Assembly: GCF_037104725.1 (NCBI RefSeq)
Contig: NZ_JBAWSX010000014.1
Coordinates: 1 to 24,000, forward strand
DNA: 24,000 nt
DNA from: Bacillus bruguierae
GTDB taxonomy: Bacteria; Bacillota; Bacilli; Bacillales; Bacillaceae_G
Direction: 5' to 3'
Part shown: positions 2,734 to 23,560 of the stretch, in pieces
Position numbering within the stretch: position 1 is the stretch's first letter
How the letters are laid out: each line of letters opens with the position of its first letter
Notes under the pieces: generated by a model
Told to the model about the DNA's origin: nothing
What the model saw: only the letters and a program-made list of their open reading frames with translations
Database searches by the model: none
Translations under genes and position numbers: made by a program

Positions 2734-3030
2734 AAACTAACTATCAGCTTGCTTATACGAATCTTTTATTTAAAATATCGGTTAAACAAATAATTTTCTT
2801 CTAAAACAAAAAAGGGCTGTTCCATAAGCAAGTAAAACCAACTTATGGAACACCCTTTTATTTTAACTATCTATTAATCATGTAATTTGTTTAAAAACTC
2901 AGTGAAGTTACTTGCCACGTAAAATACATTTTCTCTTGCTACTTCCTCTGCTTCTTCTGCTGTAATCCCTTCACTTTCCATCAGTGCTTCTTTTTCCCAT
3001 GCACCCTCATGTTCCCAAAAAACCACTATC
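2709..3030. repeat. Junction module copy 1 (partner 16541-16862)
   Basis: Near-identical stretch: TG-remnant codons, a ~80-nt spacer, the terminator hairpin and the last ~50 codons of the SUKH-1 gene. Similarity drops further into the gene. Confidence 0.85.
2814..2855 (-). terminator. Strong bidirectional-type terminator after the SUKH-1 gene
   Basis: GGGCTGTTCCATAAG ... CTTATGGAACA(-)CCC, A-run before and T-run after. This copy lacks one G in the right arm. Three copies in the window. Confidence 0.8.
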
Positions 3031-3362
3031 GGTTGGTCCCTACGACCTCTAAAATCAAAACAAATTAAGTTTCCTGCGGGATCAAATCCAATTGGAAATA
3101 ACTTACTAGGCAAGGTATCTTTATAGTCATCATAAGTTTCAAGTATAAACTCTTCACTCTCAGGATTAAAAGATAATAGTGAACCAAAAACTCTTTCAAT
3201 ACCTTCAACATCAAAAAGCATTGGTTCAACATGTCCTCCATTATTTATCGCAACACATTCTATATAGTCCATCGGAAAATCAAAACCAGTACCTTTTAAA
3301 GTTTCTTTGACATCATCTGTACTAATTTTATTATATGTATACTTCCATACTAAATTACTCAT
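2874..3362 (-). CDS. SUKH-1 (SMI1/KNR4) family immunity protein, 162 aa
   Basis: Motifs 'FPMDYIECVAINNGG', 'LLSF', 'FDPAGNLICFD' and 'VVFWEHE' are typical of SMI1/KNR4. Its ATG overlaps the stop of the WHH fragment (ATGA) with GGGGGGAG as RBS. Paralog at 16706-17194. Confidence 0.9.
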   Translation of the reverse strand: MSNLVWKYTYNKISTDDVKETLKGTGFDFPMDYIECVAINNGGHVEPMLFDVEGIERVFGSLLSFNPESEEFILETYDDYKDTLPSKLFPIGFDPAGNLICFDFRGRRDQPIVVFWEHEGAWEKEALMESEGITAEEAEEVARENVFYVASNFTEFLNKLHD

Positions 3363-3622
3363 CTAATATCTCCCCCCCATAATTTGTTTCCACCAAAATG
3401 ATTTACACCGTGAGTATCAAATATTACTAACTGTATTTCCCCAGATATTTGATGATGATGCCAAGTTAAATCCGATATACGTGGCAATCCTATTTTTATT
3501 TCTTTTAACTGTTTTGGAGTAAATATTTCTTTTAGAATCTCTCCCTTCTCTATAGCCTTCTTTAACATTTGAGTACACTCTTTAAACTGTATATCATCTG
3601 GCTTAATATATAAACTTTGTAA
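3359..3622 (-). pseudogene. 5'-truncated HNH/EndoVII-type 'WHH' nuclease toxin tip
   Basis: Contains 'DLTWHHHQISGEIQLV...HGVNHFGGNKLWG' (WHH signature). The open frame runs up to an in-frame TAG at 3623-3625, with no upstream secretion domain and no RBS. Confidence 0.6.
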
Positions 3623-5843: not shown

Positions 5844-6617
5844 TTATTTTTTAGGGGGAATTGGTTTTCCATCATTATGAATCACTTCAATTTCAATATC
5901 TGGATAATCCTTTTTAAATTGACTGATAATACTATTACAACTATCACAAGTATCTTTCTCAGTAAATAATTTTATTTTACCCTTTGCATCATGATTACCC
6001 CCTAACCGTGATGCTACATCATTTATAATCTTATACTCAGAATCTTGATCCCTTAAATAACTTACTCCATCTGCATTCTTCGCCTCTTGTGCTTCATACT
6101 TTGGGGTTTTAGGCTTTGGTGAAAATCCTTCTAAGTTCGGATTTTCACCAGCATCCTTAACTTGACTATGGGCATAAAATTCATTTTTATTTATCCCTTC
6201 AATATTTACCTCAGCGTATCCCATATTTGATCCTGATTTGTTCAGAACTCTATTTGATAGAGTTCCTTTAATCTCTGAAACTCTATTAAGAATATCAGCA
6301 TCTTTACTTGAATCAATTGATCTAGTTGGGAATCGAGAAGTCTCTCTACCACCACTCTCTTCCAACTTCGAAATCCGACTATGAATAGCCTCTTTCCTAT
6401 TTTCAAAAGTCGCTTTCACTGAACCTCTCAAGTTCGTTCCACGAAGAACTGTGTTGGCCCCACCGGCGGCGGCATCAGCAGCGTGAGCGTAGGCTAAGGA
6501 ATTATCTAGGGATTTACCAAATAATGCCCTTCTCGCCACATTAATTCCACCTGCTACACCATTTATCACCTTGATCCATTTTAAAAACATCGGAACATTG
6601 CGGCAGGAGTGGCACAA
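5844..6617 (-). CDS. Orphan deaminase-like toxin tip (paralog A), 5'-truncated by an IS3 remnant
   Basis: C-terminal '[18 protein letters not shown]...[15 protein letters not shown]...[18 protein letters not shown]' (DxE ... CxxC spacing like a deaminase core). The first ~10 codons (TTG start, [11 protein letters not shown]) are antisense to IS3-derived sequence, so there is no native start. Confidence 0.7.
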
Positions 6618-9537: not shown

Positions 9538-10065
9538 TTAATGCAACCCAAGCCGACGAAGCACGGCTTGGGGAGTGATAGCGATGTCTGATAAAAAGCC
9601 TTGTACCGCCTCTTTTATGGATGCTTGTGTCGGATGAAATCGGTTGGCAATAACCTGTTGTTTTAACCATTTCCACAGTCTTTCAATTGGGTTCAGATTC
9701 GGTAAATATGGAGGAAGGTATACCAACATCAGCCGCTCTTTCTGTTCATGCAAGAAGTTTTGTACAGATTTGCTTTTATGAATGCGAGCGTTGTCTGTAA
9801 CCATGACCACAAACTTATCTTTATATTGCTTTAGCACATAGAAGAGGAATGACAAAAAGTCTTCCTGTTTACAGGAAGACGCCGTCTGGTGTACTACTTC
9901 TCCTGTTTGGGCGTTTACTGTTCCAAAAACGGTTACGCTAGCATGATGACCATAAGTTGGAATCTGTTTTTGCGATCCTCGTTGTGACCAAGTAGCGTGT
10001 AGACTTTGATACGCTCGCACATGCGTCTCGTCTTGATAGAGAAGAACCATATCTTCGGTCAGCAA
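9538..10065 (-). CDS. IS630-family transposase, DDE catalytic part (orfB)
   Basis: 'LYQDETHV', 'VVMVTDNARIHKS' and 'LPPYLPNLNPIERLWKWLK' are DDE motifs of IS630/Tc1-mariner transposases. Overlaps orfA by 7 nt at the A8 run (frameshift or a broken gene). Confidence 0.9.
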   Translation of the reverse strand: MLTEDMVLLYQDETHVRAYQSLHATWSQRGSQKQIPTYGHHASVTVFGTVNAQTGEVVHQTASSCKQEDFLSFLFYVLKQYKDKFVVMVTDNARIHKSKSVQNFLHEQKERLMLVYLPPYLPNLNPIERLWKWLKQQVIANRFHPTQASIKEAVQGFLSDIAITPQAVLRRLGLH

Positions 10066-10595
10066 TTTTTTTTAATCAAAGTAATTTGATGTCGGAACAT
10101 ACGCTGTTTTTTGGGATCTGCCCTCTTGAGTGTGTAGGTCGGACGGGTATAACTTAACTTCAACCGCCAAAGCATGCGTAAAACACCTGTATTCGACATT
10201 TCTATATCATACGTACGACGCAAATATTCCTGAATGACTGGTGTAGTCCAGGACACAGCGCTTCCCAAGCCTTGATCCGTCGGTGTGCTCGTTAGAATGA
10301 TTTCTTTGAGCGCCTGTTGTTGGTCGTCCGTTAGAAAACATGCGCGTCCCGGTGCCATTTTACGCTCGAGAAGGAGGTCCATGCCACCTTCATTAAACCG
10401 TTTTACGTATTCGGAAACAGACTGGCGATGGATCCCACAAATCTCGGCTGCTTCTTTGCCCAATTTCCCTTGCATGACGAGACGCACAGCCATAATACGT
10501 GTGCGAAAAAATGCATTGCTTTCCTGTTTTTCTTGTATCCGCAAGTCAGTAATCGTAAGGTCATGTGTATTTGTAATCTTCAAACGCTTCATCAT
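10059..10595 (-). CDS. IS630-family transposase, N-terminal HTH part (orfA)
   Basis: 'RTRIMAVRLVMQGKLGKEAAEICGIHRQSVSEYVKRFNEGG' is a winged-helix/HTH region typical of IS630/Tc1. Ends at the slippery TTAAAAAAAATTG. Confidence 0.9.
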   Translation of the reverse strand: MMKRLKITNTHDLTITDLRIQEKQESNAFFRTRIMAVRLVMQGKLGKEAAEICGIHRQSVSEYVKRFNEGGMDLLLERKMAPGRACFLTDDQQQALKEIILTSTPTDQGLGSAVSWTTPVIQEYLRRTYDIEMSNTGVLRMLWRLKLSYTRPTYTLKRADPKKQRMFRHQITLIKKNC

Positions 10596-11066: not shown

Positions 11067-11786
11067 CTATGTTGTGATATAATTTTTAAATTGTTCTATT
11101 ATATCTAAACAACTTGGGCAACATTCCAATTCAGTAAACAATTTAATTTTCCCTGCTGTACTATACTCGGTTCCCAATTTATTTTGTATTTCTGAAAGTA
11201 TTTTAAATTCAGTATCAACATCCCTTAACCATGCTCCAGCTCCATCTACTACATTGTTTCCATCAACTTTTATTGCCTTTAATAAAGTTGAATCTGGTTT
11301 TATTAAAATGCCAGTTCCCTTAATACTCTCTATCTCTGCCTGTATTGCACTATGTGCAAAATATTCATTTTTAGTTATACCCTCTATAGTTACTTCAGCA
11401 CATTCAAAATTACCTTTTCCTATAGCCCATTGTGGCAATTTATTTTTATGTTTATTGATTATATTTAAGAAATTAGAATTTACCACTTCATCAAGTAATC
11501 TTATAGTAGTTTTAGCTTCTGCCACTCCCTTAGCAAGCGAAGCCTCAAGCCCTTGAATCTTACCATCCATAAACTTAGTACTCTCTGCATGATGCGTATT
11601 GACCCACTCAGTAATCTTTCCTGAGCCACCTTGTTCCCCTATCAACACACTGTCTCCAGCTGGTTTAGGCCCCTTGAAGAAGGCAAGTGTATTATCCATC
11701 CCTTGGGCCATTTTTCTGCCAAACTGATACATTTTTTCATTTCTGGATTTTCCTGTTTTTAATCCGTAAAATTCGAAATAATCTAA
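11067..11786 (-). CDS. Orphan toxin: TG-junction remnant + G-L-E-A-S-L-A block + deaminase-like tip (paralog C)
   Basis: The frame is open from 11786 (LDYFEFYGLKTGKSRNEKMYQFGRKM...), so it begins inside a pre-toxin region without an RBS. 'IQGLEASLAKG', then 'CAEVTIEGITKNEYFAHS...RDVDTEFKILSEI...KIKLFTELECCPSCLDII'. Confidence 0.75.
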   Translation of the reverse strand, partial: LDYFEFYGLKTGKSRNEKMYQFGRKMAQGMDNTLAFFKGPKPAGDSVLIGEQGGSGKITEWVNTHHAESTKFMDGKIQGLEASLAKGVAEAKTTIRLLDEVVNSNFLNIINKHKNKLPQWAIGKGNFECAEVTIEGITKNEYFAHSAIQAEIESIKGTGILIKPDSTLLKAIKVDGNNVVDGAGAWLRDVDTEFKILSEIQNKLGTEYSTAGKIKLFTELECCPSCLDIIEQFKNYITT

Positions 11787-11831
11787 TTATTATTTTACCT
11801 ACTTGAATGTTTTATCTAAACTATTTTTACA

Positions 11832-11919
11832 CTAAAACAAAAGGGGCTGTTCCATAAGCGAGTAAAACCAACTTATGGAACAGCCCTTTTATTTTGAATA
11901 CCTATTAATCACGTAATTT
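11832..11919. repeat. Partial third copy of the junction module
   Basis: Terminator hairpin plus 'TTAATCACGTAATTT', which equals the last 5 codons and stop of a SUKH-1 gene; the rest of that gene is missing. A further spacer scrap (TAATTTTCTTTCTCTAAAACA) lies at 12075-12097. Confidence 0.7.
11844..11886 (-). terminator. Terminator hairpin, copy 2 of 3
   Basis: Perfect 15-bp stem GGGCTGTTCCATAAG/CTTATGGAACAGCCC, flanked by an A-run and a T-run. Confidence 0.8.
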
Positions 11920-12096
11920 TTTTAGTTCGTATTTTACTGATTGTATTTTAAGCACCTGCTAATTGGATCGTAAACTATAATCCTGAGATCTAATTTATTT
12001 GGGACATTTATCTAGAAAATACACAAAAAATATTTGCGAACTCGTTTTATCCATTGGTAGACATTGCTATACGCGTAATTTTCTTTCTCTAAAACA

Positions 12097-12546
12097 CTAG
12101 CTTTTATTCTGTGCTTTAATTATTTCCATACCCTTCATAAATTTCTTAATAGAATCCTCATTCTTCATTAATCCACTTAAGTATAACAATGCATCAAATT
12201 CTTCAGGGTCTGCATCATAATATATCATTCCCGGATCAATAAAAGGTTCATAAACTATATTACATATATTTTGTCCCCCCATTTGTACACTAAAACATCT
12301 TTCCAATTTGGAAATATAACTATTTGTACAAATTAGATCGTCTACAGATGTTTCAAATGATTGTCCATTGTAGAAAAAAAATAGTTTGTTATCTTTAACA
12401 TAAATACCAACTACCTGTCCATCTTCGCTAAATCCTCCCACGCCTTGTCTAACTAACTGTACTTTATTTTTTTCAACTATTGAATATCCACTAGGTTCTA
12501 ATATAATATATGTGTCAATCTTAGGGTAATTATTCAGTATTATCAT
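12097..12546 (-). CDS. Hypothetical 149-aa protein, immunity-type position
   Basis: Strong RBS AGGAGGGGGAG 4 nt before the ATG. The RBS overlaps the stop of the small degenerate upstream ORF. No family recognised. Confidence 0.75.
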   Translation of the reverse strand: MIILNNYPKIDTYIILEPSGYSIVEKNKVQLVRQGVGGFSEDGQVVGIYVKDNKLFFFYNGQSFETSVDDLICTNSYISKLERCFSVQMGGQNICNIVYEPFIDPGMIYYDADPEEFDALLYLSGLMKNEDSIKKFMKGMEIIKAQNKS

Positions 12547-12558
12547 AAGCTCCCCCTC

Positions 12559-12823
12559 CTAATGCACTAATCCTAATAGTGTATTTATTACGTCATCTTT
12601 TTGCATTGATTTTTCAATTATAATTTTCCATACTTGTTCATCTGATTCATAAATTCCTTTATTAATGTATGAATCTTTTATCTTATTAAACATACTCTCA
12701 GCTGTTATTCCAATTAGATTACAGTATTTTTTAATATTTCTTTCCTCTAAACAAGCTATCCCCCAGCAGTCATATTTCCCCTTGCTTCAATTTTTTGCTG
12801 TAATAATTTTTTATAATTTGCAA
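12559..12823 (-). pseudogene. Duplicate of the small ORF 5-268, inactivated
   Basis: Relative to copy 1, a TGT codon is TGA and a 1-nt insertion lies near the 5' end. Only 44 codons remain open. Confidence 0.45.
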
Positions 12824-12825
12824 GA

Positions 12826-12860
12826 AAAAAGCACTTCTAGATTTATTAAGAAGTGCTTTT
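12826..12860 (-). terminator. Terminator after gene 12869-13255 (duplicate of 271-305)
   Basis: Same AGCACTTCT/AGAAGTGCT stem plus T-run. Confidence 0.7.
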
Positions 12861-12868
12861 ACTATTAC

Positions 12869-13255
12869 TTATTTAATATTATATTGCTCTTTAATTTTCA
12901 TCAACAACTCTTCAGTAATCTCTTTCTTTTCAGGATTTTTCCCTATATAAAATTCACATGCAGCACTTAAATATTGGTACAATTGATCATAATTCACAAT
13001 ATCGTAGTCATTATCACCATCGCCAGAATAAAATAAAACTTTATTTTGTCCAAAATACTCCTCATCATCTTGTTCATATTCACCTGAATAAATTACTCCA
13101 TTATATTCCCAACGCTCTCCCTCTTTACTTTTAAAACCTTCTAAGTGTTGTAGAAAGTTACGTCCATTTACATATATATTCAAAACATCAATAACTGCCT
13201 CTTTATTCAAATTTCTCTGTTTCATTATCTCAATAAATTCTTCATATACGTTCAT
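12869..13255 (-). CDS. Toxin-less immunity-type protein, 128 aa; paralog of 314-712
   Basis: RBS GGGTGGA. The N-terminal ~95 aa are diverged from the 132-aa paralog; the C-terminal ~30 aa are near-identical because they lie inside the 408-bp repeat. Confidence 0.7.
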   Translation of the reverse strand: MNVYEEFIEIMKQRNLNKEAVIDVLNIYVNGRNFLQHLEGFKSKEGERWEYNGVIYSGEYEQDDEEYFGQNKVLFYSGDGDNDYDIVNYDQLYQYLSAACEFYIGKNPEKKEITEELLMKIKEQYNIK

Positions 13256-13812: not shown

Positions 13813-14373
13813 TTATGGTGATATCATATTACCATTATTGTGAACCACTTTGATTTCTATTTTGGGGTACTTTATTTTAAAGTGATTTATAACTCCATTA
13901 CAACTTGAGCATGTATCTTTTTCAGTAAACAGTTTAATCCTTCCTTGGGCATTCACATTATCACCTAATTGATTTGCAATGTCATTGAGTATTTTATACT
14001 CAGTATCAGCATCTCTTAAATATGGTTTCCCTCCATTTGAGTTAGGTGCTTCTGTAGCCTTAAATATCGGATTTTCCGGTTTAAAAGAAAAGTTTTCGGT
14101 TCCTGGAATTTTCTTTGCGGGATCATGTATTCCACTGTGCGAATAAAATTCCGACTTATTTATTCCAATAACATCAACTTCTGCATATGCAAAATTACCA
14201 GTTTCTTTAAATCTATTAGATAGACCACCTCTAGCTTCAGAAACTTTATCAAGTATATGCCCTTCTGTTTCTGGATTTACAATACGCGTTGGAAATCTAG
14301 CCCCACTACCACCCGTGGGGCGGATCTTGAACATGCAAAAAAATAAAAAACTGGGATTTTGAGCACGTAACAA
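13813..14373 (-). CDS. Orphan deaminase-like toxin tip (paralog B), 5'-truncated
   Basis: 'GGSGARFPTR...YAEVDVIGINKSEFYSHS...LRDADTEYKILNDIA...[18 protein letters not shown]', closest to paralog A. The first ~17 codons (MLRAQNPSFLFFCMFKI) come from the GC-rich scar and are not homologous. Confidence 0.7.
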   Translation of the reverse strand: MLRAQNPSFLFFCMFKIRPTGGSGARFPTRIVNPETEGHILDKVSEARGGLSNRFKETGNFAYAEVDVIGINKSEFYSHSGIHDPAKKIPGTENFSFKPENPIFKATEAPNSNGGKPYLRDADTEYKILNDIANQLGDNVNAQGRIKLFTEKDTCSSCNGVINHFKIKYPKIEIKVVHNNGNMISP

Positions 14374-15727: not shown

Positions 15728-15979
15728 TCAAGGTTCAATAGTTGTTCGATCAACAAAATTTTGATTCTCTTTAATAATCATTCTCGAAAGTCGTCTTCCT
15801 GCTCTCTTAAAAAAGAATTCATCAGCGAACTCTTGTGAATCAATTTGCGATAGCTGGTTGATAACTCCATTTTTTTTATCATATTCAATTCGTCCCATTA
15901 AATCTTCATTCGGTCCATATTGATATACTACCCTCTCTTCATCCTCAAACTCCTTCAACATTAAAACAAAAACTGCCAT
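15728..15979 (-). CDS. 83-aa immunity protein for the unknown toxin tip
   Basis: The RBS GAGGAGTG overlaps the toxin stop codon; the ATG is 6 nt after the stop. Small protein ('FEDEERVVYQYGPNEDLMGRIEYDKKNG') typical of compact immunity proteins. Confidence 0.75.
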   Translation of the reverse strand: MAVFVLMLKEFEDEERVVYQYGPNEDLMGRIEYDKKNGVINQLSQIDSQEFADEFFFKRAGRRLSRMIIKENQNFVDRTTIEP

Positions 15980-15985
15980 GAATCT

Positions 15986-16498
15986 TCACTCCTCATAGTT
16001 TTCCTCCCAATTCCAAGGCCTTCCAGATTCTATTGTTTTGTCATGAGCTGTTCTATAATTAGTCTGGAATATCCCCTCAAATTTTGATTCGAAAATTTCG
16101 TGATCCTTTATATGGGAGTTATTAAAAACATGATCTTTAATCCTTTGTATTCTAGCAACAGAAAAGCCCGTATTTTTAGCGATAGCATTCACATCTTCCG
16201 TTCCTAAATCCCTAAATTTTCCATTTACCTCTTCTGCAATAGCTTCTTCCTTGAAGAACTGCTCTGGGGATATATTTCTTCCACCAGTTTCAGCACATTG
16301 TATAGAATTACCCGTCCCCTTAGCAAGCGAAGCCTCTACACCCTCAATTTTATCATCTATAATCTTTTTACTCTCTATATGATGCTTATCAACCCAGCCA
16401 TGGAAATCTGTACCACCCTGCTTAATTGTTATTACACCATGTTCATTGATTTCAAATCTCTTGGTTTTGGCTGTCATATTATCTATGTTTTGCGGCAT
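15986..16498 (-). CDS. Orphan toxin: G-V-E-A-S-L-A block + C-terminal tip of unrecognised family
   Basis: 'DKIEGVEASLAKG', then a ~105-aa tip ('ARIQRIKDHVFNNSHIKDHEIFESKFEG...RPWNWEENYEE'). The upstream TG remnant (FKTGQLKDRKLGNDKMY) is cut off by an in-frame TAG. Confidence 0.7.
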   Translation of the reverse strand: MPQNIDNMTAKTKRFEINEHGVITIKQGGTDFHGWVDKHHIESKKIIDDKIEGVEASLAKGTGNSIQCAETGGRNISPEQFFKEEAIAEEVNGKFRDLGTEDVNAIAKNTGFSVARIQRIKDHVFNNSHIKDHEIFESKFEGIFQTNYRTAHDKTIESGRPWNWEENYEE

Positions 16499-16540
16499 TC
16501 TTTTACCAAGCTAATACATCTTGTCATTTCCAAGTTTTCT

Positions 16541-16862
16541 ATCTTTAAGCTGACCAGTTTTAAATAAACTAACTATCAGCTTACTTATACGAATCTTTTA
16601 TTTAAAATATCAGTTAAACAAATCATTTTCTTCTAAAACAAAAAGGGCTGTTCCATAAGCGAGTAAAACCAACTTATGGAACAGCCCTTTTATTTTTACT
16701 ATCTATTAATCATGTAATTTGTTTAAAAACTCAGTGAAAGTACTTGCTACATAAAATACATTCTCTCTTGCTACTTCCTCTGCTTCTTCCGCTGTAATCC
16801 CTTCACTTTCCATCAGTGCTTCTTTTTCCCATGCATCTTCATGTTCCCAAAAGACAACAATG
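16541..16862. repeat. Junction module copy 2 (partner 2709-3030)
   Basis: See 2709-3030; the offset is about 13832 nt. Confidence 0.85.
16645..16687 (-). terminator. Terminator hairpin, copy 3 of 3
   Basis: Perfect 15-bp stem GGGCTGTTCCATAAG/CTTATGGAACAGCCC, 18 nt past the SUKH-1 stop. Confidence 0.8.
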
Positions 16863-17194
16863 GGATCTTCTTCATGGTTTTTATAATCAAAGCAAATTAA
16901 ATTTCCTGCTGGATCAAAAGCAAACGGAATCAATTCTTTAGGTAATGTATCGCTGTAGTCATTATATACATCAACTATATACTCGTCACCATTTTCATCA
17001 AAAGATAACAAAGTTCCAAATACTCTTTCACGATTATTCACATTAAATAATTCTGGTTCAACATTAGCACCATTATTTATAGCTACACATTTTATATAAT
17101 CCTTTGGAAATTTGACACCTATGTCATTACCAATTTTTTTTACAAAATCTTCACTTACAGCTTCATCTGCAAATTGCCACTCTACTTTACTCAC
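16706..17194 (-). CDS. SUKH-1 (SMI1/KNR4) family immunity protein, 162 aa
   Basis: 'FPKDYIKCVAINNGA', 'LLSF', 'FDPAGNLICFDY', 'VVFWEHE'. ATGA overlap with the WHH fragment. The C-terminal 50 aa are near-identical to 2874-3362. Confidence 0.9.
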   Translation of the reverse strand: MSKVEWQFADEAVSEDFVKKIGNDIGVKFPKDYIKCVAINNGANVEPELFNVNNRERVFGTLLSFDENGDEYIVDVYNDYSDTLPKELIPFAFDPAGNLICFDYKNHEEDPIVVFWEHEDAWEKEALMESEGITAEEAEEVARENVFYVASTFTEFLNKLHD

Positions 17195-17397
17195 CTAATA
17201 TCATCTCCCCATAATTTATTGCCACCTAAGTGACTTACCTTATGTGTCTTAGACACTACTAACTGCATTTTTCCTGGCACCTGATGATGATACCATGTTA
17301 AATCTAAGATTCGTGGCAATTCCAACTCTATCATCTTTAATTGTTTAGGTGTAAAAATATCTCTCGGTATCTCTCCTTTATTTATTGCTGCTTTCAA
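17191..17397 (-). pseudogene. 5'-truncated WHH-type nuclease tip, signature altered
   Basis: TTG start directly after a TAA. 'DLTWYHHQVPGKMQLV...HKVSHLGGNKLWG'; the first His of W-H-H is Tyr in this copy. Confidence 0.6.
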
Positions 17398-17715: not shown

Positions 17716-18177
17716 TTAAAATATTTTAGGTACCTTAGGGATACATAAACACTCGAGCATCTCTTCAGTATTATCTCCAAATTTAACTAAGCATCCATCA
17801 GTATATCCATAATATTTTTCGCTCGGTGTAATTAATAAAATTAAATTACCTCTATCTGTTTCTCCTACTGGAATTAGTTTTTCTCCAATTTCATCATTAT
17901 ATTCTTCTTCTAAATCCTGAAAATATTCACCATCTAAACAATCTCCAACTGACAGCTTAGGATTAAAATGAATATACTCTTTCATATCAAATGCTGGATT
18001 AGGATCTTGAAAAGTAATTTCCAACATTCCAAATTCAGTTAAAAACTTTTCCGCAGTTTCAAATAAACCAATTCCCCTTTCCTTAAATAAATCTTTTATA
18101 TCGTGTATATCAATCTTTCTATCTTCATACCATCCTGCATTTGTTAGTCTTTCTATTGTAATATCTGATAATTGCAT
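17716..18177 (-). CDS. SUKH-3-like immunity protein, 153 aa, cognate to the full-length toxin
   Basis: RBS AAGGAGAG, 13 nt after the toxin stop. 'LTNAGWYEDRKID...AEKFLTEFGMLEI...IHFNP...KLIPVGETDRGNLILLI...GDNTEEMLECL' fits the SUKH-3 pattern as recalled. Confidence 0.8.
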   Translation of the reverse strand: MQLSDITIERLTNAGWYEDRKIDIHDIKDLFKERGIGLFETAEKFLTEFGMLEITFQDPNPAFDMKEYIHFNPKLSVGDCLDGEYFQDLEEEYNDEIGEKLIPVGETDRGNLILLITPSEKYYGYTDGCLVKFGDNTEEMLECLCIPKVPKIF

Positions 18178-18190
18178 AAAACCACTCTCC

Positions 18191-19813
18191 TTATTCTGCC
18201 GCCTTCATAAATTCACTAAATGTAACCTTACAGTTCTTACAAAAATCTGCAAATTCTCCCGTTTTAAAATTTACAGTTCTAACAAACATATCTTCAATTT
18301 TAGCCCCATCATTAAGTGCTTGATTTACAGCCTGAATTTCTGCGCAATTGTCAACATCCCATTTTTCAAAGCTACCTTTTTCTACATACGGATTATTTAT
18401 ATCTTTTTTTGCTAAATCTTTTGTTCTTTCAATAAGTTTTTGTAAATCTTCATGTAACACTTCAGTCCTACTTGGATTAAACCCTGTTTTACCAGAATAT
18501 CCATAATATATTTTCCCTGTTTTTGTATCTACAATTGCACTTACTTTTGATGGTGCAAATTTTCCTCCTGTTGGTTTTACAATTCCTCCATTTTTAATAT
18601 ATTCAACGTGTTCTGCTAATGCAGTTTTAGAGTCATTTAATGACTTAGATATGATATCAGCATTACTTACTCCCTTACCTGAGCCAACATTCCCTATCCT
18701 CTCCGCAAGCGAAGCCTCAATCCCCTTAATCTCATCAGTCTTTGCAAATCTCCCAGCAATTTCTCCAACTGTTGAGTATTCTGAATAAGGAAGCTTTACT
18801 CCTTCTATTCCAGTATCTGCCCACTTAACTCTTACTGGAATTGGCGTATTTCCCACTGTATTTAGTGCATTTTTTAAAGTATTATTATCTCCCAACGATT
18901 GTACCACATTTTTCCCTTCATTTGGGTTAAAGCCCATTGCTCCCTCTGACGATCTTCCTAATGATCCAATATTTTGGAATCCTTTTACAATTCCTACACC
19001 ACTCGTGATAAACTCGAGGGCACCAGAAACATATCGTTCCGTCCGTTCCCCTTCACTTAATTTCCGATGTGTTCCCCAATCTTCTCCGTCAGAGGCACTT
19101 TTTACTTGGAGCCCCCCAAATATCAGTGATGCTGCAACCCCTAATGGTGGACAAATGAACGTTGCTCCAACTGTTAGAACTCCTAATCCAAAGTCACGAA
19201 ATGCCTCTAGCTGTTTTTGCTCATCCTCTATTGATCTGTATTCAAATCCTCGCGTCGAGGGAACTCGTCTTCTGTACTCTTCATAGTCTAGATTCATGTT
19301 TGGATCTCGTCTTTTCCATTCTTCATACTCCGCACGAAGAACCTCATTAAATGCCTCTGAGTCTCTGAAAATATCATCCACTGTTATTTTCGGTTTTGTT
19401 GTTGTGATGGTTTGCGGTGTGCCACCATAGCTACGTGAATCCACTATAGTTGTCGTTGTAGAACCAATTCGGTTTGTAGTCTCAAAATTTTTAATTGATA
19501 TATCTCTCATTTCTTGTGCAAAGCGATCCATTGTTTCCACAAATGGTTTGTCGATATGTTCATAGACAGCTTGCCCTGCCTGATCACAGTAGCTGTCTAG
19601 ATCTGTATAGGCATTATGTAGTTTACCGATTGTTTCAAGCTGATCTTTATGATGAAAATAAATACTTCGATCTGAATCTAGATCTTGTATCCTTTCCTGT
19701 ATATCTTTTACAAGATTATTAGCTTGGCGTAAGTTTACAAACGTATCTTTTGTGAGCTTGTTCATTCCGTCTTTCATATCTTGCCAAGCCCTTACCTTAT
19801 AACTAACATCCAT
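18191..19813 (-). CDS. Full-length polymorphic toxin, 540 aa: helical N-terminal (LXG-like) domain, pre-toxin TG-like region, YwqJ-like deaminase tip
   Basis: RBS GGGGATGGAG. N-terminal ~115 aa helical. Hydrophobic/Gly-rich 'FGLGVLTVGATFICPPLGVAASLIFGGLQV' followed by 'GEDWGTHRKLSEGER' (TG-type motif). 'IKGIEASLAE' junction. Tip has 'WDVDNCAEIQAVNQAL' ... 'FCKNCKVTF' (C-x-E ... C-x-x-C). Confidence 0.85.
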   Translation of the reverse strand: MDVSYKVRAWQDMKDGMNKLTKDTFVNLRQANNLVKDIQERIQDLDSDRSIYFHHKDQLETIGKLHNAYTDLDSYCDQAGQAVYEHIDKPFVETMDRFAQEMRDISIKNFETTNRIGSTTTTIVDSRSYGGTPQTITTTKPKITVDDIFRDSEAFNEVLRAEYEEWKRRDPNMNLDYEEYRRRVPSTRGFEYRSIEDEQKQLEAFRDFGLGVLTVGATFICPPLGVAASLIFGGLQVKSASDGEDWGTHRKLSEGERTERYVSGALEFITSGVGIVKGFQNIGSLGRSSEGAMGFNPNEGKNVVQSLGDNNTLKNALNTVGNTPIPVRVKWADTGIEGVKLPYSEYSTVGEIAGRFAKTDEIKGIEASLAERIGNVGSGKGVSNADIISKSLNDSKTALAEHVEYIKNGGIVKPTGGKFAPSKVSAIVDTKTGKIYYGYSGKTGFNPSRTEVLHEDLQKLIERTKDLAKKDINNPYVEKGSFEKWDVDNCAEIQAVNQALNDGAKIEDMFVRTVNFKTGEFADFCKNCKVTFSEFMKAAE

Positions 19814-19847: not shown

Positions 19848-20177
19848 TTACCCTTGAGGTTGTAGTTTATTATGTAATTCTTCATCCTGTTTTCTCATTT
19901 CTTCGCGAACCAGCTCTACAATGGATGCCGCTCGGTTATAATGGTCTGATAGCTCCAATATTTTATTTAATATTTGGGGATATATGTCTATGACTCTCAT
20001 CGCTTCTCCTTCAAGATAGAATTTACATTCTGCTAGACTTTTCGCATTTGTCGCTATAACACCTGTATAAATGTTATATATACTTTGAAAACGTCTTATA
20101 ATCTCTTCTATCTCATCGTAATTCATTACAATTTCTGAACTACTACTTGCACTGCCATCTCCCATTGGTACTTGCAT
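19848..20177 (-). CDS. 109-aa helical-hairpin partner protein (WXG100-like/Lap-like, no WxG)
   Basis: ATG overlaps the upstream stop (TAATG) with AGGAGGAA as RBS. Predicted two-helix protein with a central 'YLEGEA' turn. Confidence 0.8.
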   Translation of the reverse strand: MQVPMGDGSASSSSEIVMNYDEIEEIIRRFQSIYNIYTGVIATNAKSLAECKFYLEGEAMRVIDIYPQILNKILELSDHYNRAASIVELVREEMRKQDEELHNKLQPQG

Positions 20178-20908
20178 TAATGGATTCCTCCTAACGAGAA
20201 TTGTCTTGGATCGCTTATTTTCTTATACGGCATTTTTAAAACATCATATAACTTCTTATTCACCGCATACAGACTAGCCCATTCATAACGCTTACGGTCT
20301 ACTTCAATTTGAATAAAGTCTTCCCCCTCTGTAAAGTACAAGAAGCATTCCCATTTCCCGCTATCTCCTGCTCTTCGATTTCGCGGGCGAGAAAACGTTT
20401 CAATAGCTAATAGATCTTTTTCAGATAAATCCATTTCCTCGAATGTTCGCTGCTCCTTTTCTGTCATTTTCTTTGTAAAAAAAGTATCTTCGATTTCTCT
20501 TGGTTCTCGCATTAAAAACGGAATCCGTTCTAATAATGAAAAATATACATCTCGCTTCGCTATGTAATGAATTTCATATTCTTCATTTTGTTTTCGTTCT
20601 GTTAAGACAGCGACTCTATCTTTATCTTGTGGTAAAAATCCAATTAATAGATTATTAATTCGCGTATATTCTTGGCTTTCTTGATATGCCTTCAGTAATT
20701 CAATCAACTGAAAAGCCGCTGGTGTCAGTCCATTATTCTCCGTAATAAGCCCTTTCTCTTTCAACTTCACTGTCGCCTTCGTTACACATCCTTCATCAGT
20801 TAAAGTAAGAATTCCACGCTCTTGTAGGCCGAATATGTATGTAACTCCAGCTGCACCAGCTAATATGTACAGTTCAGCAGGTGTAAAGCTCCACGTATCT
20901 TTTCCCAT
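20177..20908 (-). CDS. 243-aa operon protein, candidate adaptor/chaperone (DUF5081-like by recall)
   Basis: RBS AAGGAGG. The N-terminus 'WSFTPAELYILAGAAGVTYIFGL' is reminiscent of the N-terminal motif of EspG-type secretion chaperones. No catalytic motif seen. Confidence 0.8.
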   Translation of the reverse strand: MGKDTWSFTPAELYILAGAAGVTYIFGLQERGILTLTDEGCVTKATVKLKEKGLITENNGLTPAAFQLIELLKAYQESQEYTRINNLLIGFLPQDKDRVAVLTERKQNEEYEIHYIAKRDVYFSLLERIPFLMREPREIEDTFFTKKMTEKEQRTFEEMDLSEKDLLAIETFSRPRNRRAGDSGKWECFLYFTEGEDFIQIEVDRKRYEWASLYAVNKKLYDVLKMPYKKISDPRQFSLGGIH

Positions 20909-20928
20909 CCGTTTTTACCTCCTTTCTA

Positions 20929-21234
20929 TTACAATCTTTTTATCTTTTCCACTTCAATTCTATTTGCAAATGATTGAATGCTCTCATCCAGCTCTTTCAA
21001 GGCTTTTGTTTGTCCTTCAAGCACAGTTGCAACTTTAGCATTATACTGAATGAGCACATCTAAATAGCATAAAAAAGCATCGTTTGTTTTCCCGCTCCAA
21101 CGAGTACCTGTCACATATGATTGTAAAGCTTTAGCCTGCTCGAGCGAATCTTTCACACCCTTTTCAATTTGCTCTGCATAAGAGATGGCACTTGATATTT
21201 CACTTCCATGAATCTCAACGTCTTGACTACGCAT
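20929..21234 (-). CDS. WXG100-like small secreted/partner protein, 101 aa
   Basis: RBS GGGGGAA. Central W46-S47-G48 ('GTRWSGKTNDAF') between two predicted helices, the hallmark length and geometry of WXG100/Lap1-type proteins. Confidence 0.8.
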   Translation of the reverse strand: MRSQDVEIHGSEISSAISYAEQIEKGVKDSLEQAKALQSYVTGTRWSGKTNDAFLCYLDVLIQYNAKVATVLEGQTKALKELDESIQSFANRIEVEKIKRL

Positions 21235-21304
21235 GTTCTTATTCCCCCATTTCCTTCAATACATTTCCTTATATTCACATCGCTTTGCCGATTATTTATA
21301 CTTT

Positions 21305-21703
21305 TCAGCCTCCCAAAAGTTTCTTTAACGCTTCAGCTGTCTCTCTATCTTCCGCATCTGCTTTCGCTTTATATTCCGCCCATTTGTGATACGCCTTATC
21401 TTTCGCAGATGTAACATCATCTAATGTTTTTTCGAAGTAACGTATCAGCTCAGCTAGTTCTGAATCCTTTTCTCGTCGTTTTCCCACAAACTCACGGGAT
21501 GGTATTTTATCTTGTGGTAATTCTTGACCCGTTCCCTCATAAGCTGTCTTTGCAGATCCAACATCGTGCATTACTTTTTTTAACTCACTTTCTTTACCCT
21601 TTAAATATTCGTACAATTTATCGTAATTATCACGCTTTCTTTCACTATCCGTATACCCGATATGAAGTAAGTTACCGACGGAATCTATGAAGTTCTCTGC
21701 CAT
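21305..21703 (-). CDS. 132-aa helical first gene of the operon (YwqH/Lap-like by position)
   Basis: RBS AAAGGGGG. Charged coiled-coil-like sequence. First gene after a 450-bp intergenic region. Confidence 0.75.
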   Translation of the reverse strand: MAENFIDSVGNLLHIGYTDSERKRDNYDKLYEYLKGKESELKKVMHDVGSAKTAYEGTGQELPQDKIPSREFVGKRREKDSELAELIRYFEKTLDDVTSAKDKAYHKWAEYKAKADAEDRETAEALKKLLGG

Positions 21704-22150: not shown

Positions 22151-23560
22151 TTATTTTCTTTGACCATACGCGGCTGTTGGTTTAACAGGTTTCGCATCTG
22201 TCGCTTCCCATATAGGGGCAGTTAATGTTGGATAGTTTAAAGCTTCTACTTTTTTTCTCGTTTCTGGTGATGCTTTTAGTCCCCATTGATCAAAAAATGG
22301 AAGTACATTTTGTCTCGCTACTTTTGATGTATTGTAAATAAATGCTTGTATTTTATCTTCATTCGTTTCTGGAAGTTTGTCTTTTGGTAACTCTCGATAT
22401 AGTTTGTGAAGATTTGGATAGAAATCTTCACCATATGCTAAATGAAGTTGCCAAAACATAGCGACTTTCACAAATGGGTCATTAATCTTTTCATATTCTT
22501 TATCTGTTTGTTTTAAGTATTGAAAGGCTCTGTCATAATCCCCTTCTTTTTCTAAACGTGTTGGTTGACCTGGGAATAATTGTTTTTGTGCAGCTAAAGA
22601 GTATATATTAACATTGACTTCAACTACTCCATCCCACGTCCAAGGGTATTGTTGTCTTGTATGCCCTGCTTCATGCATTTGTCCCCATCCAAATTCATTT
22701 ACATCTAAAGCACTTTTAATTGCGTCATAAGCAGTAGTAAATACGACTCCATCCCGACCTGCATACATGTACATGCCAGGTGGATTATTAGGGTTTTCCA
22801 CGAAATTCCAAAGGCGGCGAGTTGAGCGATGTAACGGATTAGAACTTGTTTCAGATAGCCCTGATAATTTATCTTGTACTAGAATCATGTCATCATATTT
22901 TTTTAATAAAGGAACAGGATCTTGATCCACAATATATTTTTTCGCACTATCACGAGTAACAGTAAGTACCGCTCGTTTTGATTTCAATTGTACAGCGGGT
23001 GCATCTGGATACTTTTCCATCATCGCAATCCAGTCTTGTTTCGTATGCTTCCCTAATTCAAAGAATGGAACAGGGCTCCCGCCTTGTGTTACTTTCACCT
23101 TAACTGTTCCTTTTCCTTCACAGTTATCAAATCCCAATAAACCACCGTTTGGAGAAGAGATTGTGTTAGAACCAGAAGAAAGACGAAATACTTTTCCACC
23201 TTCTTTATCATATTCATTTGTCCCAATCGTTGCTCCAAGCTTATCTAGTCCTGATAATCCCGATACTTCAATTGTAACTTGTTCATTCGGTTTTACATAG
23301 ATTCCTGTTGGCGTATAGTTTCTTTGCTCGCTTCTTCTTTCTCTTGCTGCTTCACCCATATAATGTCCTGTACTTGGAAGTTCAAACTTCTTCTCTTCAT
23401 ATTGCGTCTGGGTTTGCGTAGTTTCAGCATGAACATTCAAACTATTTACATTGATAGATGTAAATAATGTCGTTGTCAAAACAGCAGATGTCATCAATAC
23501 TTTCATTGGTTTTTGTGATTTACGATTCTTTCCCCTATTCAAATAAATCAATCCTTTCAT
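22151..23560 (-). CDS. Secreted M60 (enhancin-like) zinc metallopeptidase, 469 aa
   Basis: HExxH motif 'GQMHEAGHTRQ'. Signal-peptide-like 'MKVLMTSAVLTTTLFTSINVNSLNVHAE' (an alternative start is the ATG at 23506). An enhancin-like PlcR-regulon protease is known in the B. cereus group, but identity with it is not established here. Confidence 0.9.
   Translation of the reverse strand: MKGLIYLNRGKNRKSQKPMKVLMTSAVLTTTLFTSINVNSLNVHAETTQTQTQYEEKKFELPSTGHYMGEAARERRSEQRNYTPTGIYVKPNEQVTIEVSGLSGLDKLGATIGTNEYDKEGGKVFRLSSGSNTISSPNGGLLGFDNCEGKGTVKVKVTQGGSPVPFFELGKHTKQDWIAMMEKYPDAPAVQLKSKRAVLTVTRDSAKKYIVDQDPVPLLKKYDDMILVQDKLSGLSETSSNPLHRSTRRLWNFVENPNNPPGMYMYAGRDGVVFTTAYDAIKSALDVNEFGWGQMHEAGHTRQQYPWTWDGVVEVNVNIYSLAAQKQLFPGQPTRLEKEGDYDRAFQYLKQTDKEYEKINDPFVKVAMFWQLHLAYGEDFYPNLHKLYRELPKDKLPETNEDKIQAFIYNTSKVARQNVLPFFDQWGLKASPETRKKVEALNYPTLTAPIWEATDAKPVKPTAAYGQRK

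Follow-up and report, generated by a model that had tools for sequence, protein, structure and literature searches.

The DNA considered here is a stretch of 24,000 nucleotides (nt) from Bacillus bruguierae (contig NZ_JBAWSX010000014.1, positions 1 to 24,000; referred to below as the window), which carries a full-length polymorphic toxin gene of 540 codons on its minus strand (18191-19813, the live toxin) and, below it, an array of orphan toxin tips and immunity genes. A sequence-only reading had singled out the peptide EASLA, which the live toxin has in common with two of these orphans, as a constant/variable boundary at which toxin tips might be swapped. Our analysis indicates that EASLA quite probably forms the C-terminus of the final helix in a Nuc_N-like pre-toxin module, and that recombination breakpoints stack there as the limit of usable homology. 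A protein of Bacillus sp. FJAT-51639 matches the live toxin at 100% identity, and 869 homologues were found, nearly all of them in the B. cereus group; they have the N-terminal ~300-400 residues in common, and at least 13 Pfam toxin domains are represented among them, including EndoU, two deaminase families, AHH, LHH, WHH and HNH nucleases, TNT, Ntox15 and Endonuclease_NS_2. The elements of the live locus, all on the minus strand, are as follows:

19848..21703, minus strand: partner genes, in order upstream of the toxin, for a 132-residue EsxC-like protein, a 101-residue WXG100 protein, a 243-residue DUF5081/EsaE protein and a 109-residue protein in the EsxD position
18890..19813, minus strand: constant N-terminal transport region, codons 1-308, with 97.7% nt identity to the orthologous allele L024 followed by a collapse
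18737..18889, minus strand: type-A pre-toxin module, codons ~309-359, with ~80-85% nt identity to B. cereus-type alleles
18665..18736, minus strand: 72-nt junction patch, D360-S383, DEIKGIEASLAERIGNVGSGKGVS, which in a three-way DNA alignment matches the Bacillus sp. Xin1 (L004) "B-long" junction at ~95% identity
18704..18724, minus strand: GIEASLA codons of the live toxin (aa 364-370), read from the sequence, within a predicted linker (aa 352-424, AlphaFold2 (AF2) confidence score pLDDT <50)
18191..18664, minus strand: variable tip, a YwqJ-like deaminase as judged from homologues (PF14431 matches), with an AF2 fold predicted for aa 424-540
17716..18177, minus strand: cognate immunity gene, SUKH-3 by Pfam

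The order esxC-esxB-esaE-esxD-esaD is that of the nuclease toxin locus of T7SSb, the secretion system of type VIIb, in Staphylococcus aureus, and in some Bacillus species this cluster is placed apart from the secretion locus itself (PMC10653861). Orthologues of the partner genes at loci L021, L022 and L024-L027 carry EsxC (PF26323), PF06013 and PF16887 domains, PF26323 being found on the orthologous 132-residue gene of L024-L027, while the 132- and 109-residue open reading frames (ORFs) of the window have no Pfam match at E<=0.01 and NCBIfam holds no model for the toxin or its partners. On the basis of gene order and domain matches, we assign the locus to the esxC-esxB-esaE-esxD-esaD-type T7SSb polymorphic toxin operons. 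The resemblance to S. aureus EsaD (EssD) extends from the gene order and the WXG100, DUF5081/EsaE and EsxC families encoded upstream (PMC10653861) to the helical N-terminal transport region, the C-terminal toxin and the downstream immunity gene, and several Bacillus alleles even have the Endonuclease_NS_2 tip of EsaD. The Bacillus family differs, however, in being far more polymorphic (29 tip clusters among 106 proteins), in having two pre-toxin modules and in possessing an explicit junction motif. A constant N-terminus joined to many unrelated C-terminal domains, an immunity gene downstream and an orphan cassette array are all present, as in other polymorphic toxins. No LXG domain (PF04740) is matched in Pfam or NCBIfam at E<=0.1, neither VENN nor PxxxxDPxGL peptides occur in the translated sequence or among its Pfam matches, and the PDB holds no sequence relatives of the toxin or of the module termed B below. 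The AF2 model of the full toxin has a mean pLDDT of 51.7, too poor for fold comparison. Residues 232-276 give a PT-TG match of only 14 bits, and no Nuc_N match is obtained anywhere in the live toxin.

Three sites in the window encode the EASLA peptide. The live toxin reads IKGIEASLAE (aa 361-371) on the minus strand, and the corresponding peptides of the two orphans are IQGLEASLAKG (orphan 1) and IEGVEASLAKG (orphan 2). The orphan elements are:

11067..11786, minus strand: orphan cassette 1, a truncated module B with a PF14424 deaminase tip; a 94% identical copy is present in L001
11532..11552, minus strand: GLEASLA codons of orphan 1, read from the sequence
15986..16558, minus strand: orphan cassette 2, a 5'-truncated module B (16311-16558, with an in-frame stop) and a 107-residue tip; Nuc_N match of 19.4 bits, ending at KGTG
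16322..16342, minus strand: GVEASLA codons of orphan 2, read from the sequence

The nucleotide identities reported by the sequence-only reading are found exactly where it placed them, as are the peptides: GCAAGCGAAGCCTCAA is an exact match between 18705-18720 and 11533-11548, and CCCTTAGCAAGCGAAGCCTC between 11527-11546 and 16317-16336. Moreover, the 14-mer GCAAGCGAAGCCTC occurs three times in the window, once per EASLA site, and is matched in none of 100 dinucleotide-preserving shuffles even when one mismatch is allowed. A generic helix-forming peptide might have arisen three times by chance or convergence, and an unrelated actinobacterial-type coiled-coil protein (P0165), which contains four L/IEASLAE repeats and gives a weak profile match, lends this idea some color. 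It is nevertheless improbable in the extreme: the shuffles, the homology of the two orphans over ~400 nt upstream of the motif and the ~95% identity of the 72-nt patch in the live toxin to a junction in another genome together refute chance resemblance. The two orphan tips were claimed to be unrelated, and pairwise comparison indeed detects no mutual similarity past the motif. The accompanying statement that EASLA lies just before the tips applies to the orphans but has to be modified for the live toxin, in which a 12-residue spacer (ERIGNVGSGKG) intervenes and the folded deaminase is predicted to start at about aa 424.

The anatomy of the family was drawn from an alignment of 120 homologues. 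The constant region runs to GKNVVQSL (aa ~305) and is followed by one of two unrelated, alternative pre-toxin modules. Type A (the B. cereus type) ends in ...DDAYQLAKGTG or, in a longer form, in ...AYQLAKGSGGSGVSKEGS[VL]AKGTG, whereas type B (the B. pseudomycoides type) ends in ...WVNTRHAESTKFMDGKIQG[ILV]EASLA, followed by KGTG either directly or after the spacer ERIGN.GSGVSKE.SGVKGTG. The element common to both module types gives the general motif E-[AG]-S-[LV]-A-K-G-T-G, so that, judged from the alignment, K-G-T-G appears to be the universal end of the constant part and EASLA the version of the general motif that belongs to one lineage. The codons CTT GCT AAG GGT ACG GGT (CTTGCTAAGGGTACGGGT, encoding LAKGTG) are the same in type-A and type-B genes, and the DNA of the Gly/Ser spacer is common to the A-long and B-long forms. 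In the live gene itself, which is a mosaic of nested parts, the constant region is followed by a type-A module, then by the 72-nt patch of type-B junction sequence and, last, by a unique tip.

Several lines of evidence relate module B to Nuc_N (PF14448), a helical domain that in Gram-positive bacteria precedes nuclease toxins of unrelated kinds (Zhang, Iyer and Aravind, NAR 2011; PMC3113570). Module B is co-linear with the Pfam profile over positions 2-58, the match ending at KGT(G), and an orphan in the window (5844-6617, minus strand) scores 29.0 bits, above the gathering score of 25; in this orphan, the equivalent of EASLA is RISKLEES (SKLEES codons at 6354..6371, minus strand, ending the Nuc_N domain), after which a PF14424 tip follows. 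Orphans at L024 and L025 also have a precomputed Nuc_N match. Like Nuc_N, module B is alpha-helical and, in polymorphic toxins of Gram-positive bacteria, directly precedes toxin domains that are unrelated to one another, and the arrangement WXG100-PT-TG-Nuc_N-toxin is supported by two separate fragments, P0152 (PT-TG, Nuc_N and tip) and P0179 (WXG100 and PT-TG). An AF2 model of module B built from a 28-sequence alignment (mean pLDDT 81) consists of a helix (residues 2-51), a beta-hairpin and a second helix (72-107); EASLA, at residues 96-100 of 108, makes up the final turns of helix 2 that are modelled with confidence, which declines beyond residue 100. On this prediction, EASLA would be the last conserved piece of a helical-hairpin module of ~100 residues that is a divergent Nuc_N domain. 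Foldseek comparison with the PDB returns only generic helical hairpins (prefoldin, MacA), all at E>0.1. The module-B family is also narrow, since a profile search of 1.84 billion proteins yields 36 cluster representatives, all from the B. cereus group except for one spurious coiled-coil protein, and canonical Nuc_N members are not reached. Type-A modules have no Nuc_N match at all, yet they end in LAKGTG. By its sequence context, the module is placed among the EsaD-type (T7SSb) polymorphic toxins of the B. cereus group.

The PT-TG domain (PF14449) is likewise of the pre-toxin kind, occurs in T7SS toxins of Gram-positive bacteria and has a conserved TG, but it is a separate element: in P0152 it spans residues 5-53, upstream of module B (70-127). 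The "TG" of KGTG is not the PT-TG motif. As far as the literature is concerned, searches on KGTG, LAKGTG, EASLA and SLAKG gave nothing relevant, and no paper was found that names the motif as a demarcation motif; the parts of PMC3113570 available to us describe the Nuc_N domain and do not single out its C-terminal motif as a recombination or demarcation boundary. The suggestion that no EASLA-type demarcation motif has been described is thus upheld with respect to the name, although the motif is the C-terminal end of a domain that is already known.

The loss of conservation at the junction was measured as mean pairwise identity over 40 distinct module-B copies. The L and A of EASLA have a value of 0.90 (the E and S columns being fixed by the search pattern that selected the copies, although an anchor independent of EASLA still finds the motif in nearly every copy), which drops to 0.40 for the following K and G, to 0.23-0.28 for the next three residues and to 0.06-0.10 from position +6 onward. 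Among full-length proteins, 106 of 117 have an [AV]KG[TS]G-type junction, after which they separate into 29 tip clusters. The homologue alignment, in which identity collapses within 5-6 residues, hence bears out the proposal of a constant/variable boundary positioned like VENN or DPxGL. As with VENN (PT-VENN) in CdiA and PxxxxDPxGL in Rhs-YD proteins, a short conserved peptide stands at the junction, downstream orphan tip-immunity cassettes keep a piece of the constant region that ends in the motif, and the same tips are found on different carriers. There is no relationship in sequence or fold, however, and the EASLA family belongs to T7SSb whereas VENN and DPxGL are features of type V and type VI secretion systems. 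The domain class, the toxin class and a junction motif with orphan cassettes are all known, and what we describe is an ordinary polymorphic-toxin feature that reveals no new mechanism.

Natural chimeras with a breakpoint at the motif, which had been proposed as something to look for, were found repeatedly. Two alleles of the orthologous locus, L024 with a deaminase tip and L026 with an EndoU tip, are ~100% identical over 810 nt and 80-100% identical through module B, and become unrelated immediately past GAGGCTTCGCTTGCTA[GA]GGGTAC. Six orphan heads (two in the window and one each in L001, L002, L009 and L010) are 85-95% identical up to EASLAKG and then lead into four different tips. The same tips are also found behind type-A and type-B modules, with homology that begins at E[AG]SLAKGTG; cross-module pairs include P0154 and P0016 (84% over 186 aa), P0139 and P0071, and P0159 and P0036. 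The orphan at 13813-14373 is homologous to a module-B-linked tip (L023) from precisely the T-G codons of KGTG onward (ACGGGT; 5' edge at 14303..14317, minus strand), and no module is left upstream. Among canonical Nuc_N orphans, that at 5844-6617 and its counterpart in L024 have 90% nt identity up to LEESG and are then unrelated. Finally, orphans that stem from WXG100-PT-TG toxins also have module B and its junction after a genuine PT-TG domain. As a separate observation, one tip family (GG.RFPT...) is joined in three ways in the window and its relatives, namely after EASLAKGTGDS, after LEES and after a bare TG.

In the explanation that we favor, Lys-Gly-Thr-Gly would act as a helix-breaking hinge after the helix that ends in EASLA, joined to it without a gap (EASLAKGTG) or by way of a spacer rich in Gly and Ser (EASLAERIGN.GSGVSKE.SGVKGTG), and the toxin tip would start after this hinge. 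The junction would then be the last sequence common to all alleles and to the 5' remnants of the silent orphan cassettes, and so the 3' limit of the DNA homology that homologous recombination can use. A tip and its immunity gene could pass from one allele to another, move between an orphan and a full-length gene or be exchanged with DNA brought in from outside, and breakpoints would be stacked at the junction because the last conserved sequence limits homology downstream. Recombination within the upstream module would, we infer, produce the breakpoint pattern that is seen.

Some observations weigh against this explanation. Most module-B copies match Nuc_N below the Pfam gathering score (11.8-23.0 bits, for example 19.4, 18.7, 23.0 and 20.1, against 25). 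Neither module is present in P0002, P0012 and P0013, and in P0010 and P0106 the break comes a few residues before the junction. Tips shared between type-A and type-B carriers need crossovers within the ~18-27 nt common to both module types, a length that is short for RecA-type recombination, so that some of these events may be illegitimate or microhomology-mediated. Moreover, the live toxin diverges from its nearest alleles (L024 and L026) at codon ~308, after GKNVVQSL: comparison of the window with the sister locus L024 gives 97.7% identity from 21755 to 18893 and no relationship thereafter. Relative to these alleles, the constant/variable boundary of the live toxin therefore lies at codon ~308, and EASLA came in as a small patch; the claim of a boundary at EASLA is accurate for module-B copies and fails for this comparison. 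The alignment points to a second, upstream recombination boundary at 18890, with module, junction, tip and immunity gene exchanged as a block. The nested boundaries (codon ~308, the module end and the KGTG hinge) imply that alleles are mosaics of small segments, not two-part fusions. In an orphan of 281 residues (P0147), the tip opens with a patchwork of N-terminal stretches (the first 10-30 residues) from three other tips (KGTDNLKFKEGYYVEHL / QAQNANRLSGEK / GVGKTGEGIPLEEVKP...), so that recombination also takes place just downstream of the junction.

Sharing at the nucleotide level is real, although it is not specific to EASLA. The codons GAG GCT TCG CTT GC are the same in 12 copies, in 24-26 of 26 copies and at 17 of 22 loci. 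The 20 codons that precede them are, nevertheless, nearly all equally invariant across 26 distinct copies, with synonymous counts of AAT 24/24, CGC 15/15, CAT 26/26, GCA 21/21, GAG 23/23 and AAG 24/24. We therefore reject a special DNA-level conservation of EASLA; invariance of this extent is what common descent, or gene conversion at the module end, would leave, and the exact identities probably have such an origin, not a dedicated site. GC content at third codon positions (GC3) drops from 0.44 over the final 27 codons of module B (29 copies) to 0.17 in the next 12 codons, and in the live toxin the maximum (0.6) falls in the bin that holds EASLA (18660-18740). Biased gene conversion or a foreign origin are possible causes of the raised GC3 before the boundary.

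These data bear on the idea that the 14-20 nt core is itself an active recombination site, as a hotspot or through microhomology, for tip switching between the live toxin and the orphans. The argument for it runs that the EASLA codons are identical in all copies examined, that TCG, CTT and GAG look unusual in a genome of 34% GC in which GC3 is raised before the boundary, that breakpoints lie within a few nt of the motif, and that a tandem GIE-GIE directly at the motif in a Bacillus pseudomycoides orphan (P0169, NDEIQGIEGIEASLAKGTG) suggests slippage or unequal exchange at the junction. The core is not distinguished from its neighboring codons at the DNA level, however; there is no GC3 peak at type-A junctions, no B. 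subtilis Chi sequence (AGCGG) is present in the core on either strand, which eliminates a Chi-like hotspot, and the replacement breakpoint of the live allele relative to the sister strains is ~170 nt upstream of the motif. We consequently regard an active site of this kind as unlikely.

In Bacillus, RecA-dependent recombination is efficient only when tens of base pairs of homology are available. Since the live gene has a type-A module, it has only 14-16 exact nt in common with the two orphans, within 49 nt of 71-76% identity. This short homology, the strong hairpins described below and the in-frame stop in one of the orphan heads make tip switching between the live gene and the orphans inside this genome, as the sequence-only reading had envisaged, improbable. 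The evidence instead favors exchange at the population level. A BLAST search for the live tip as an orphan in the sister strain L024 found no copy.

The position of the motif directly before every tip, followed by a Gly-rich flexible segment, and the poor AF2 confidence of the live toxin over aa 352-424 could also be read as signs that E[AG]S[LV]AKGTG is a proteolytic processing site, which would release the tip after T7SS export. The analogy is with polymorphic toxins that are known to be processed. DPxGL, for instance, is part of an autoproteolytic site in Rhs proteins, but there is no such sign at EASLA, and Pfam and NCBIfam detect neither a peptidase nor an autoproteolytic domain in the toxin. 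Cleavage is never mentioned in PMC10653861. In addition, some alleles keep the ORF with another peptide in place of the motif or with the motif displaced (ASLASKGTG, EASLAKDNIK, LEESGG), and a domain-end helix followed by a hinge accounts for the conservation without any cleavage. Processing at the motif therefore seems quite unlikely.

The motif is common to at least two unrelated pre-toxin modules and to two carrier families, EsaD-like toxins and WXG100-PT-TG toxins. One might imagine that E-[AG]-S-[LV]-A-K-G-T-G, with its unusual bias to G/C-ending codons, is a selected "universal adaptor" that is kept for tip exchange across families and perhaps for toxin release. We consider this unlikely; if true, the motif would play the part in T7SSb that VENN plays in CdiA and would offer a ready-made point at which to splice chimeric T7SS toxins. 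With a homology limit at the end of a Nuc_N-like module as the preferred explanation, the EsaD-type family of the B. cereus group still gains a sequence-defined constant/variable junction, E[AG]S[LV]AKGTG, that can be used for automatic annotation of tips and orphan cassettes, for breakpoint mapping in population genomics and, as VENN is for CdiA, for the design of chimeric toxins.

The whole remainder of the window below the live toxin, ~18 kb, is an orphan array with members at 15986, 13813, 15219, 11067, 7354, 5844, 3359 and 17191. Its toxin fragments include two WHH domains, four PF14424 deaminases and one EndoU, each followed by an immunity gene; the immunity genes comprise two SMI1, two Imm3, three CdiI_4 and one Imm22 (DUF4284). 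Both EASLA orphans are preceded by stable RNA hairpins:

11826..11895, minus strand: terminator-like hairpin before orphan 1, -35.8 kcal/mol, z = -7.8
16627..16696, minus strand: terminator-like hairpin before orphan 2, -35.8 kcal/mol, z = -8.3

A simple terminator scan overlooked these hairpins, the loops of which exceed 8 nt, and their high stability emerged from RNA folding. The ~400 nt of homology between the two orphans includes the hairpin (91% identical), and in orphan 2 the homologous head reaches ~16558, past the ORF start at 16498, with a stop codon within it. From the predicted folding, the two EASLA orphans would be transcriptionally insulated relics behind strong hairpins.

A recurrent "cassette head" precedes different tips at 11825-11924, 16626-16725 and ~2760-2860 in the window and in L001, L002, L003, L009 and L010. 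Its parts are ~40 nt from the 3' end of an SMI1/KNR4 immunity gene, an A-tract/hairpin/U-tract, a spacer of ~70 nt and a module B truncated at a constant point, and the head looks like the downstream homology arm left after insertion of a WHH-SMI1 cassette. A degraded head at ~2560-2800 ends after DEIKGG, one more exception to the usual junction. The 107-residue tip of orphan 2 (15986-16310, minus strand; NSIQCAETGGRNISPEQFF...WNWEENYEE) and its 83-residue partner (15728-15979) belong to no Pfam family, are 97% conserved in L024 and form a possible uncharacterised toxin/immunity pair.

Duplications are also evident within the array. Positions 1-712 and 12540-13255 are segmental duplicates that contain a tip C-terminus (...KSMQKDDVINTLLGLVH) and a CdiI_4 immunity gene, and a second pair of WHH fragment and SMI1 gene at 2874-3568 duplicates 16706-17397. 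The array is interrupted by an IS630-family insertion sequence (IS) element (9538-10595, minus strand) with helix-turn-helix and DDE_3 ORFs that are apparently split by a frameshift. The same IS630 element is found at the equivalent end of the array in L024, together with other IS elements, and the L022 array contains a resolvase and an IS110 element. On the other side of the locus, directly upstream of the toxin operon, lies a gene for an M60-like/ImpA-type metallopeptidase (22151-23560, minus strand), which occupies the same position in L024 and L025.

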